The notes below the pieces were generated by a model. The model was given only the letters and a program-made list of their open reading frames with translations, was not told the DNA's origin and did not search any database. Shown one piece after another: positions 6,126 to 57,067 of a stretch of DNA of 64,000 bases (positions are counted from its first letter, which is position 1; each line of letters opens with the position of its first letter). A program made the position numbers and the translations under genes. The stretch spans positions 124,001 through 188,000 of the forward strand of contig OX597834.1 of the NCBI GenBank assembly GCA_951406725.2, in the 5' to 3' direction. Origin of the DNA: Octopus vulgaris (taxonomy: Eukaryota).

Positions 6126-6910
6126 CTAAGAGAGAGAGAGAGAGAGAGAGAGAGAGAGAGAGAGAAAGAGAGAGAAGGAAAGGGAGAGAAAGAGAGTGTG
6201 AGATTTGAGAAATAAAAGGAAAAAAATTTACATTTTATATTGCAATTTGAAATCACAAATCATTCCAAAGAATGAAATTTAAATAAAAAAAATTATAAAA
6301 TTGCAAAGTTGAATGTGTTGTTTATAAATTGTCAGCTTTAAATGTAACTTAATTTCATGCTTTATTAAAAATACTGGATGATAGTAGTGACATCTAAACA
6401 GATTGCAACCAGTTGACAGAATTTATGGGGACACTCAATAAATGGTGGCATGGCTCTTCAATTGTCACTGTGGGGCAGTGCCCCAAACTTTGGAATAGCT
6501 TTGATAGAGGATCTCTATTGTAAGAACCCTGCTCTTTGGTATCTTTAGATATAAAATGCAAATGTCTAAAATATATATTCAGTTTCAATCTTGGTTGAAC
6601 AAAATTTAACTGAAAGTGGACTTAATAGGAATAACTATTGAGAAATAGAGGAAATTGTGGAAGAACTCAATAAGTGAAGAATCTTGTATTTTGGACACTT
6701 GACCTTCACCTGAAAGTCAAGAAAACAAAGTGTGGAATGAAGACCACAACCAGTTTTCAGATCATATTAAATGTGTTTGTTGTTAATTATGAAGTCAAAT
6801 AAGATTTTAATTGGGTTTTGGAATCAAAAGAGCACTATGACCATGAAATTCTAAGATAGACATAGGAGAGTCTTGTAGTTTGCTTGAAGCATTGTGTATT
6901 GTTTGGGAAA

Positions 6911-8245
6911 TATAATGTGTCTTGAATGGCACAACAATGCACCATAATAACAATAATGGATTATAAGAACTGTTATAATTTAATCATCCATAGTCTGATA
7001 TAATATTTCGGAAAATTAAAAATTCCTTCTTCAGATATTCCTAGGAATTGATCGAATCACTGCTATGATCAGTTTTCCAATGGTCTTCTTTTTTTCCGGA
7101 AGCATTTCTACAAGAAAGCAGCCAGTAGAGATAGGTTTGTCCAGTACAATTCAGCACTTCCACTTGGTGCCAAACTAAGATATGCCAGAAATGAACTTGC
7201 ACGCATCCAGAGCAAGTGCAGCAGGACAGAGTGTAAGGTGAGCCACACTACATGCTTCCTAGAAATATTGAAAACCAACGGGTACCCTATATCCAATATA
7301 AATCGGTTTAAGTACCCAAGATGACCAACATGCCGAACACATAGAAAACCCAGCAACACATGCTTCCTTAAAATAGCCCACTTTAGTGAGGGGATAACTA
7401 CAGCCATCTGAAAGGCCATAAGAAGAGAAGGACTAGACATACAACCAGCCCACTCCAGCCCCTCTCTGAAAAGGCACCTCACAAAGAAACGAGCAAGGGA
7501 CAGCAATCAATGCACACTAGCAAACTGTCCCATCCATGACACAGATTTATGCTAACGGGGAAATGTTGTGTATAGAATACAATGTAACAAATGCAACAAG
7601 TTCTATGTGGGTAGCACAACAAGACCGTTACACATTGACATCAAAGAACATCTGAACACAAGAGTCTCTTCCTTCAGAAAATATCTAGACAGATGCCGGA
7701 ACACCAACAAAAGCATAACAGTCACAATTGAGGTCAATGAAAGAAATTTGGGTAATTTAGGAATTAAGGAAGCTATCCTCATAGATAGACTAGGGCTCAA
7801 AATAAGAACAGGCTGCAGGTTGGCAGTCATTATATTATTTAGCTACATCTGGATGTGTGTAGGTTCATTTTTGATGATATGCTCATGTATTTTTTATAAA
7901 AAAGAAGAAAGATAAAAAAAGGAAACTGCACGTATAATACAAAACTTAGAAGCAGCACTACGGCTGTACCAGCACACACAAGCTTGAAACATGGCTGCCC
8001 TCACACACTCCTCATGAGGAATTCCGGAAGGAGCTTCGTGAGACCACTGCAGAGATGCTTCCAGAAAGAAAAAACCGTTGCAAAACCGATTACAGCAGTG
8101 ATTCGATCAATTCCTAAGGATATCTGAAGAAGGAATTTTTATATTCCAAAATATCATATCAGACTATGGATGATTAAATTACACCAGTTATTATAGTCCA
8201 TCATTGTTATTATGGTGCATTGTTGCACCATTCAAAACACATTAA
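6911..8245 (+). mobile_element. Penelope-like element fragment with ~195-bp inverted terminal repeats (6911-7106 / 8055-8245)
   Basis: GIY-YIG remnant VYRIQCNKCNKFYVGSTTRPLH..IKEHL and ILKTNGYP. The arms carry a degenerate CTGAAGA..GAAA motif. Confidence 0.85.
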
Positions 8246-10181
8246 GATATATGTATTTCATTGTGGGAGTTAACATCTCCGATTTCCATATTGCAGCAGG
8301 TTGTGCTGAAGTGGCCCTCACTGCCACTTCATCAGGAAAAGGAGCACCACAGGGATCAACCATCTTTCAAACCCTTTCCCTCTTTAATATTAACAACAAT
8401 TAACAATGCATTTTTAGAAAGAGTATGACGTATATTGATTCTATATTTTGATAATTATTGCAATTAGTGGACAATAATTTCATTGGTTGCAGCTGCCTCC
8501 CACCCAATAACACAAGACATTTGGTTCACTGATGGTCTTAACAGTGGAACTTGAGTATCTGCACCCTGAGGCAGAGCAAACATCTCAAAGGACATTGTTT
8601 ATAAAGTACAAGCTTTTTGATTTACTCCACTTGACATTAGTGAGGCCTCAAAGTCACAGTTTTTGTTCTAAATGACACAAAACTAATTAGGTGTTGCTCT
8701 TAGGTAAGATTAAAATATAATTGCTAAGATCCACAAACAGAGAGAGAAAAGGTGTGTGTGTGTGGGGGGGGGGTGAATGCTATTATGACAGCACATTAAT
8801 AACTTTGAGGTAACCTTTCAAACTAGAAAACAAAAATAACAAAGAATAAAAACCAGAGTTGAGCATGGAAACAGATGAGGTGTTTTAAAAACAAAAAAAA
8901 AAGACTAACAATTTCGTTGTTAAACAATTGTATGCTCTGCAATGCATGGAGCTTGCATTTCTGCTGATCTTGCAATGCAAAAATGAAGACAAAGGAAGAT
9001 GCTGTTGTTGCTTAACTGACTGAACAGATCTGGGACTTATGGCATTCCAACCATGACCATTCTGTCTTTTCCCAATGTGCAGGGAACCCTGTACCACATC
9101 TAACATGCCAGTCTTCTAGGACGGTAGGGTATGATTTGAGGTAAGTCAACTGCTGTTTCTAGCAAACTAAGTGACTCTGCAGAGACTTGTGTTCAGCTTT
9201 GGCTGAACAGCATTTTTCTGTGATGGCAACTCAACGGGAAAATCATTACCCAACCATAAGATTTCAGGTTCGGTCCTACTACACAGTAACTTGGGAATGT
9301 GTTTTCTACTACAGCCATGGGGTAACCAAAGCCTTGTGAGTGGATTTGGTAGGCAGAAGAGGGAAACTGAAAGAATCCCACCATGTGTGTGTCCTTGTCG
9401 TGACATGATGAGATGGTTGAAAATAAACTTCACCATCATATAGGAGATGTTATTCCTTTGAAGTCTTCTGTGTAAAACATATCTGGCCATGGGGGAAATA
9501 TTACCTCACTTGGGAACCAGTGGGGGTTGGTGACAGAAAGGGCATCCAGCCATAGAAAAATTGCCTCGACCAATTCTGTCTGGACCATGGAGATATTGAC
9601 AAGTTGATGTTACAATGATGTCACAAAACAAACCTGTAATTTTGATAAACTATCTCTAAAGGCATCTCTTTATATATGAAGCAAAGACATTTAATTCTAG
9701 CTGCTCGATTTCCCTTGCCATGGAAGAGTCTGATTATGACTACTGTAGTCCTTATTACACTTCCATCTGACCATAATGTAGCTAATTATTACATTTAATA
9801 ATGATACGGGTAATAATAACAACAATAATAATAGTAATAGCTGATATTTTCAATGATAATAAACAACAGATTTAACAACAAATGACAGACAGGACAAGAT
9901 TGAAATATAATAAAGAAAAGAAAAAAGTTGCATTAACTATAAAGCATTTTGAATAGTAACATAATAATAATAATCCTTTCTACTATAGGCAAAAGGCCTG
10001 AAATACAAGGGGGGGGGAGAAGGCTAGTCAATTAGATTGACCCCAGTGCTTGTCTGGTACTTATTTTATCAAGCCTGAAAGGATGAAAGTTAAAGTCAAC
10101 CTCAGTGGAATTTGAACTCAGAACATAAAGACAGACAAAATGCTGCTAAGCATTTTGTCCAGCATGCTAACAATTCTGCTT

Positions 10182-56549: not shown

Positions 56550-56564
56550 CTCTTCTTTTTTCTC
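56550..56564 (-). CDS. Candidate 15-nt in-frame microexon of Cav2 (EKKEE)
   Basis: ttttttgcag|GAGAAAAAAGAAGAG|gtcagt. Phase 0 to 0, matching the flanking exons. Confidence 0.55.
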
Positions 56565-57067
56565 CTGCAAAAAAGTACAACACTTTGACAGGTGTGTGTC
56601 AACTAACAAAGCAAAAGGGCCACAAATGAGATAATGGGGCAATTAACAAGAACAATGGTATGGGAACAGCTAAAGTCTTAAGAGTTTTGCTTTTAAAGAA
56701 ATGTACAGAACAATATATGGAACAGAAATGTAGAAACTCAAAACAGAGATGTTTGCATGTGCTTGCACGTACGTACGTGTGTAAAAGAAATACACTATGT
56801 TGAATATAGCATAAATATCCAGAACAAAAATGTGTTTTAATTTTCAAAATCAACAGTTTATATAATTCTGAAATAAAGCAAATAAAACTATAAACGATTC
56901 TCTCATTAGCTTCACAAGGAATTCATCAAAACTGTCCTAAAAGACTTGTTATATTTTATCAGGACATAATTTATCACTTTTGAAATTTTTTTAAAAAAAA
57001 GAAACTCTTTAATAACAAAATAATAAAAAATTCTGGGTGTAGTTTTTTTTTTTTTTTAATTACTTAC

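Follow-up and report, generated by a model that had tools for sequence, protein, structure and literature searches.

Four alternatively used cassette exons at the post-IQ splice junction of the Octopus vulgaris Cav2 gene

Introduction

The closest described counterpart of the splice module considered here is in the Cav2 gene of Aplysia, where four alternative post-IQ exons are described, including two microexons of 21 and 15 nt at the present junction that were recovered by RT-PCR and differ in usage in sensory neurons (Dunn et al., 2023; PMC10657410). In the available part of that paper, their inclusion left synaptic depression and its reversal unchanged, and a construct with C-terminal exons gave an initial PSP of 18.3 versus 11.2 (P=0.038, n=4,5), an effect that is not assignable to the microexons because the construct also bore larger downstream exons. 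Dunn et al. (2018; PMC5818475) had previously listed, in their Table 1, an acidic Octopus insert (LFWED...NQRP; KOF72120.1), the oyster insert VEDKEE and inserts from Drosophila, and the accessible text describes Aplysia Cav2 with and without the splice as alike in expression, excitability and modulatory inhibition.

Here we analyse a 64-kb window (the whole stretch of DNA under study) of the Octopus vulgaris genome, the minus strand of which carries the Cav2 alpha-1 gene, and describe the exons that lie between its IQ exon and the next exon common to most cephalopod records.

Results

The Cav2 locus and the exons flanking the junction

The assignment to Cav2 alpha-1 follows from a Cav2-type EF-hand/IQ region together with a terminal DWC PDZ ligand, with the final exon, which ends DDDWC, following downstream in the same orientation on this contig. 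The exon cores match the O. vulgaris record P0035 (CAI9738066.1) at 100%, and the phases that an earlier note on this DNA had read at the end of the IQ exon and at the start of the exon at 6013-6125 are both borne out (Table 1). Two of the 16 junction-spanning cephalopod records, P0010 and P0123, lack the latter exon. It opens with a basic, hydrophobic and conserved helix motif, a pattern for which recurs in 18 of 59 Cav2-like representatives at 24-131 residues from the IQ start, a count taken without a null control. An AlphaFold model of a form that skips the cassettes (P0064; mean pLDDT 44, with all residues from 149 on below 50) places an IQ helix at 158-176, coil at the junction and a further helix at 187-195, all at pLDDT <50, a confidence too low to position the motif. 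A Pfam scan of six intronic ORFs returned GIY-YIG matches below the cut-off in two and nothing in the other four.

Table 1. Coordinates of the Cav2 exons and candidate exons in the window
Feature	Position	Strand	Remarks
Four upstream Cav2 exons (IVS6/EF-hand/pre-IQ)	62325-62452, 59858-59954, 59522-59626, 58993-59096	-	together span 58993..62452
Cav2 IQ exon	57068..57177	-	phase-0 end; 100% to P0035
Cassette E, EKKEE microexon, 15 nt	56550..56564	-	in 9/16 junction-spanning cephalopod records (one reads EKKDE); squid 5/5 identical
Cassette A, acidic exon, 144 nt	44205..44348	-	in 12/16 records; squid 36/48 identical; borders exact in contigs; in Table 1 of PMC5818475
PSIVE candidate, 15 nt	41664..41678	-	strong donor, weak acceptor; probably a chance match
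Cassette B, 99 nt, 33 aa	37474..37572	-	in 3/16 records (one O. bimaculoides model and two from squid); squid 20/33 identical
Cassette L, LQYSDSEE microexon, 24 nt	27098..27121	-	in 4/16 records and in P0124; squid 8/8 identical
Exon after the junction	6013..6125	-	phase-0 start; 100% to P0035; opens with basic helix motif RPPSFFQRIIGVMR
Following Cav2 exon	3917..4034	-	basic RRGSSRRKK stretch

Four cassette exons between the IQ exon and the conserved helix

Between the flanking exons lie four cassettes, all in phase 0, which we label E, A, B and L in their genomic order. The earlier note had proposed a partly different set, namely E, A, PSIVE and L, each of which is indeed a stop-free, phase-0 stretch of the minus strand bounded by AG and GT; the three microexons among them (E, PSIVE and L) do all end in GAG|gt. 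E, A and L are recovered as exons in Octopus records and in the squid record BAA13136.2, PSIVE has no such support, and the list had overlooked exon B, which an AG..GT scan of the intron also returns as a 99-nt phase-0 candidate.

Exon A encodes 48 residues, among them 23 D/E and 10 Tyr, with a net charge of -18, and contains internal repeats of 21-30 nt; in Argonauta it has 65 aa, being enlarged by poly-Asp. Taken together, E+A+B+L amount to 94 residues in both octopus and squid, with a net charge of -21 and 12 tyrosines in the former.

Alternative use in protein records and contigs

Three protein searches and three cluster look-ups yielded the 16 junction-spanning cephalopod records, which are mostly gene models and are not independent, as several are isoforms of one annotation. 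Four of them have none of the cassettes (the individual inclusion counts are in Table 1), and the 16 possible patterns are represented by only six: none, A, E+A, E+A+L, E+A+B and E+A+B+L. In these records E, B and L never occur without A; the cassettes are alternatively used, as had been proposed, but do not look freely combinatorial. Two E+A records additionally skip the next two exons. All four cassettes occur in genomic order in the record P0127 from the squid Heterololigo bleekeri (BAA13136.2, presumably a cloned squid cDNA), and the RefSeq Octopus models XP_036367713.1, XP_036367714.1, XP_052831401.1 and XP_014784009.1 together with this squid record jointly hold all four and never PSIVE; E, B and L are thus already present in public protein records. 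The O. vulgaris model that matches the window, CAI9738066.1, skips all of them. A further record, P0124, starts in the intron that precedes L and continues across L to the RP exon; over the junction region it is identical to a cuttlefish model, and its intronic stretch upstream of L is conserved with the octopus window.

Contigs of presumed RNA origin from 4 of at least 24 sequencing runs (X1, X9, X13 and X14) were compared over the region 36450-44420; none of the runs matching the window is registered as RNA, and they bear no tissue label. The borders of exon A are exact in those of X9, X13 and X14, and the contig match extends past its acceptor, the overrun being 1 nt for X9 and 2 nt for X1, X13 and X14. 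As the IQ exon ends in TG and E in AG, these overruns fit a junction of the IQ exon with A in X9 and of E with A in the other three, which is consistent with A being spliced both with and without E, the partner exon being deduced from the overrun rather than read. The X13 and X14 contigs stop at the donor of A, suggesting more than one continuation from there. X13 comes from a related species (organism C) and differs from the window at 69 positions over a contig of 1176 nt; none of the listed substitutions falls within 37430-37615 (186 nt around B), whereas 40 of them lie in the flanks (permutation P=0.0014), the full table having 108 further rows.

E, A, B and L are hence each present or absent between the same flanks, B and L by the protein records only. 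There is very little doubt that all four are exons, in frame, conserved to squid and alternatively used. A lone direct junction from 57068 to 6125 combined with a lack of conservation, which the earlier note had named as the outcome that would contradict it, is not what is observed.

Chance matches and rejected candidates

Microexon candidates were scored with a rough splice-site matrix, using untrained weights that we set ourselves, and the antisense strand served as background. There are 780 open-frame microexons of 3-30 nt in the sense direction and 705 in the antisense direction; at a score of at least 8 only two remain, EKKEE and LQYSDSEE, both sense, with none on the antisense strand. 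Of the candidates in the earlier note, which had cautioned that short AG..GT matches arise by chance, E, L and the acidic exon A stand out and are confirmed by homologues. As many as 10 candidates on the sense strand and 8 on the antisense strand equal or exceed the PSIVE score (4.9), and since its score is matched by the antisense background it does not rise above chance. Its donor is the sole AG|GTAAG in the sense intron, and the antisense strand has three. PSIVE was found in 0 of the 395 proteins compared, of which only 16 are cephalopod records that cross the junction. The contigs over 36450-44420 show no PSIVE junction; the real exon B likewise has no junction there. Those of X9, X13 and X14 have no cover at the PSIVE position, while an X1 contig passes through it unbroken. 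The X1 contig does the same at exon B, so we do not weigh this against PSIVE, and no joint linking A, PSIVE and B is found among the contig joints listed. We consider it improbable that PSIVE is an exon.

Other candidates were also set aside. A 117-nt candidate at 35776-35892 occurs in none of the records and runs antisense inside a region with a retroelement-like ORF (34940-36147). The remaining AG..GT candidates lie in simple repeats or have background scores, and the 16 cephalopod records carry none of these candidates between the flanking exons. The O. bimaculoides model P0155 has 39 additional residues behind B that are unmatched in the window and were taken as a model artefact.

Signals of microexon regulation

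E and L fall within the size range of frame-preserving eMIC microexons (3-27 nt), for which A and B are too long. Moreover, L has a UGC at -21, a weak AAG acceptor and a 50-nt AG-free zone, in which it resembles the microexons dependent on eMIC (Srrm234 / SRRM3/4). On the other hand, E, with an AG-free zone of just 16 nt and a UGC only inside its 3' splice site, is unlike them; the expectation of an upstream UGC within 45 nt therefore holds for L and not for E, and a separate UGC is likewise absent from the 45 nt upstream of A and B. The feature is weakly specific, as a UGC at -14 or -17 is also seen in two of seven flanking exons. Given this and the missing UGC in E, A and B, eMIC control is a lead for L only.

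The octopus genome has a Srrm234-like locus with a PF15230 match above the cut-off, and an exon with ARKRP, which we take to be the eMIC motif, lies 24 kb downstream of that match on the same strand and in a compatible phase. The eMIC targets of the fly combine a UGC with a weak acceptor and an extended stretch free of AG (10.1101/2021.02.24.432780). Further, in P0124 L is joined downstream while its upstream intron is retained, which is like the downstream-first splicing order typical of SRRM4 microexons (PMC10250204). At roughly even odds, inclusion of the cassettes would be neuron-biased, with L the likely target of the Srrm234 eMIC microexon activator.

The same junction in other molluscs

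Several other molluscs have optional, mostly acidic microexons at this junction: two in Pomacea, which appear in all four combinations; two in Gigantopelta, along with one long exon; two or three in Patella; two that differ from each other in Mya; and others in oysters and scallop. Their sequences vary between mollusc classes, and they are acidic in most mollusc groups sampled. The peptides EEKDE and DNDSEE resemble E and L, respectively, and may be orthologous to them, judging by sequence; A and B were found in coleoids only, among the animals compared.

Vertebrate Cav2.1 also has C-terminal cassettes, e43/e44; the cassettes of vertebrate Cav2.1 are located elsewhere than the octopus ones and are not known to be acidic. 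The octopus cassettes are unrelated in sequence to the vertebrate Cav2.1 cassettes e43/e44 and e37a/b. The latter pair shows that the proximal C-terminus of vertebrate Cav2 is alternatively spliced as well (PMC5818475, PMC12149502); the available part of PMC12149502 contains nothing on Cav2.1 e43/e44.

The same flanking motifs are found in the supplement of the Aplysia study (PMC10657410) and in the octopus window, placing both at one post-IQ molluscan splice site. As in exons 45-48 of Aplysia CaV2a1, the IQ exon is followed by optional microexons and then RP, the microexons being used singly or together and the RP exons being skippable. Unlike in the octopus, the Aplysia peptides are not acidic, and the octopus has four cassettes, two of them larger and coleoid-only among the animals compared. 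E, B and L are unnamed in the accessible portions of PMC5818475 and PMC10657410, and a literature search, within which subscription papers were outside scope, gave no description of E, B or L among the matches listed. A search for squid LoCav2 found none; in one by peptide strings, LQYSDSEE was in none of the matches listed and only PMC5818475 was relevant. A search combining microexon and octopus returned 10.64898/2026.09.05.749416, the available part of which does not mention Cav2.

Discussion

We favour, with a probability of about 0.6, the reading that the four alternative cassettes form an adjustable acidic spacer that modestly alters channel regulation or release coupling. Alternative inclusion adds between 0 and 94 mostly acidic, Tyr-rich residues directly after the calmodulin-binding IQ helix. 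The spacer might thereby set how far the IQ/calmodulin site is from the conserved basic helix and basic segments beyond it, and how much charge lies in between, and could adjust regulation or release coupling, modestly, by neuron type. That the insert influences C-terminal interactions as a spacer or by its charge is itself a tentative proposition, to which we give somewhat less than even odds. The Aplysia data indicate that any effect would be modest and would not be on depression. Further, snail Cav2 is described, in the part of the source available, as lacking buffer-resistant Ca-dependent inactivation (PMC8980814), which weakens the case for a local calmodulin effect.

The same observations could be read as near-neutral inserts that are tolerated in a disordered linker, with the junction being a hotspot of exon birth and persistence. 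The unaffected depression, expression, excitability and modulation in Aplysia (PMC10657410, PMC5818475, as far as the available texts go) agree with this, as do the divergence of the inserts between mollusc classes, the internal repetition of A and its poly-Asp expansion in Argonauta. However, octopus and squid are identical in E and L and 75% identical in A, conservation extends into the introns flanking B and L, and the acidic character recurs in most mollusc groups sampled, all of which speaks against mere tolerance and makes this explanation unlikely. A different function is suggested by the tyrosines of A, all 10 of which are in acidic contexts and 9-10 of which are retained in squid and Argonauta: the exon might be a multi-tyrosine phosphorylation or docking segment adding Src-family kinase control apart from the EF-hand tyrosine. 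Acidic contexts favour tyrosine kinases, and two further Tyr-rich acidic microexons are present farther downstream in the gene. Src is also reported to act on molluscan Cav2 via the EF-hand Tyr (PMC5818475). Nevertheless, the microexons of other molluscs at this junction have no Tyr, and Tyr/Asp/Glu repeats can come from simple-repeat DNA, such that we regard a phosphotyrosine role as rather improbable.

It is also conceivable that some of the records reflect alternative transcript ends, either an internal start upstream of L that would yield a C-terminal-only protein, or read-through at the donor of A, whereby the channel would end one residue on. P0124 does open with an in-frame Met located in the intron that precedes L, but the octopus codon at this position is ATA and downstream-first splicing accounts for the record. 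Similarly, the Argonauta model stops just after A, the window reads V-stop beyond the donor of A, and X1 and X13 contigs continue from A into the intron; yet the contigs of these two runs extend over most of the intron with comparable depth, which is what unspliced RNA or DNA would give. This explanation is accordingly a very remote one. The adjustable acidic spacer remains our preferred reading.

No new kind of system emerges from the locus: the splice site and the acidic Octopus insert are already published, and so is a functional test in Aplysia with a largely negative outcome. What is gained are exact coordinates for a four-exon module, with one missed exon added and one likely false exon dropped; given that the matching O. 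vulgaris model omits the whole module, isoform-level tests in cephalopods become easy to design. Most invertebrates have a single Cav2 gene (PMC11828482), which would make splicing a main route to synapse diversity. A bolder and improbable proposal is that an old molluscan microexon site was elaborated in coleoids into a polyacidic, multi-tyrosine switch within their presynaptic calcium channel, in which E (EEKDE-like) and L (DNDSEE-like) would be pan-molluscan since the split of the classes, and A would add about 10 kinase sites and a charge of -18 by the IQ helix, releasing or re-docking the basic helix. If this were true, the coleoid module would be a means of regulating transmitter release by neuron type that has no equivalent in vertebrates.

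Modularity of the Cav2 C-terminus

Further optional exons of the Cav2 gene, encoding NQANY, SIEMK and PSEKQ, lie downstream of the window, the last of them with an alternative acceptor inside the exon, and the entire proximal C-terminus is thus modular. Two Tyr-rich acidic microexons, YFYE and DYYYDD, are additionally found in the distal C-terminus of the same gene. At this distal site, Octopus records have neither microexon, YFYE alone, or YFYE together with DYYYDD, while squid has a small insert unlike either of them.

The squid Heterololigo Cav2 record P0127 (BAA13136.2) has a Cys in place of a Tyr in octopus exon A, one of the optional exons following the IQ exon (window 44205-44348), and differs from cuttlefish-like records by several Ser-to-Gly and Ile-to-Met changes. 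These differences would fit A-to-I recoding. The genome also has a locus for the microexon activator Srrm234, the proposed regulator of the optional exon L (LQYSDSEE); this locus includes an exon with the eMIC motif.

Features of the Cav2 gene, its intron and the Srrm234 locus
Feature	Location	Strand	Properties
NQANY, SIEMK, PSEKQ exons	L002-L003 (G000:C21:104001-124000)		optional
YFYE microexon	L004 ~2985-2999 (G000:C21:94001-104000)	minus	15 nt, phase 1, AG + GTAAG
DYYYDD microexon	L004 ~1675-1692 (G000:C21:94001-104000)	minus	18 nt, phase 1, AG + GTAAG
Srrm234 locus	G000:C25:37317492-37341805 (L001, L008)	+	eMIC-motif exon
Self-inverted repeat	window 28968-31241		2.3 kb, 90% identity, simple repeat in part
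Tandem duplication	window 20703-21857 and 21795-22947		1.15 kb, 99.5% identity, ends inverted
Retroelement-like ORF remnants	window 34940-36147, 7052-7915, 644-1308	+

Repeats and putative mobile-element remnants in the intron

In the pre-mRNA, the self-inverted repeat precedes exon L by about 1.8 kb. It could form double-stranded RNA with an effect on editing or splicing; alternatively, it could be an assembly artefact. The tandem duplication, which contains a GIY-YIG-like ORF with a match below the cut-off, is either a recent pair of Penelope-like elements or an assembly duplication. Among the ORF remnants a GIY-YIG match is found only at 7556-7912 and is weak; the others are presumably retroelement-like by resemblance.

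The post-IQ junction beyond molluscs

Variable inserts also occur at the post-IQ position in the Cav2 representatives P0257, P0259, P0270 and P0334, which we take to be nematode-like, and two vertebrate Cav2.1 records (P0003 versus P0118) differ there by 8 residues. The post-IQ junction may be a splice hotspot in animals other than molluscs too.
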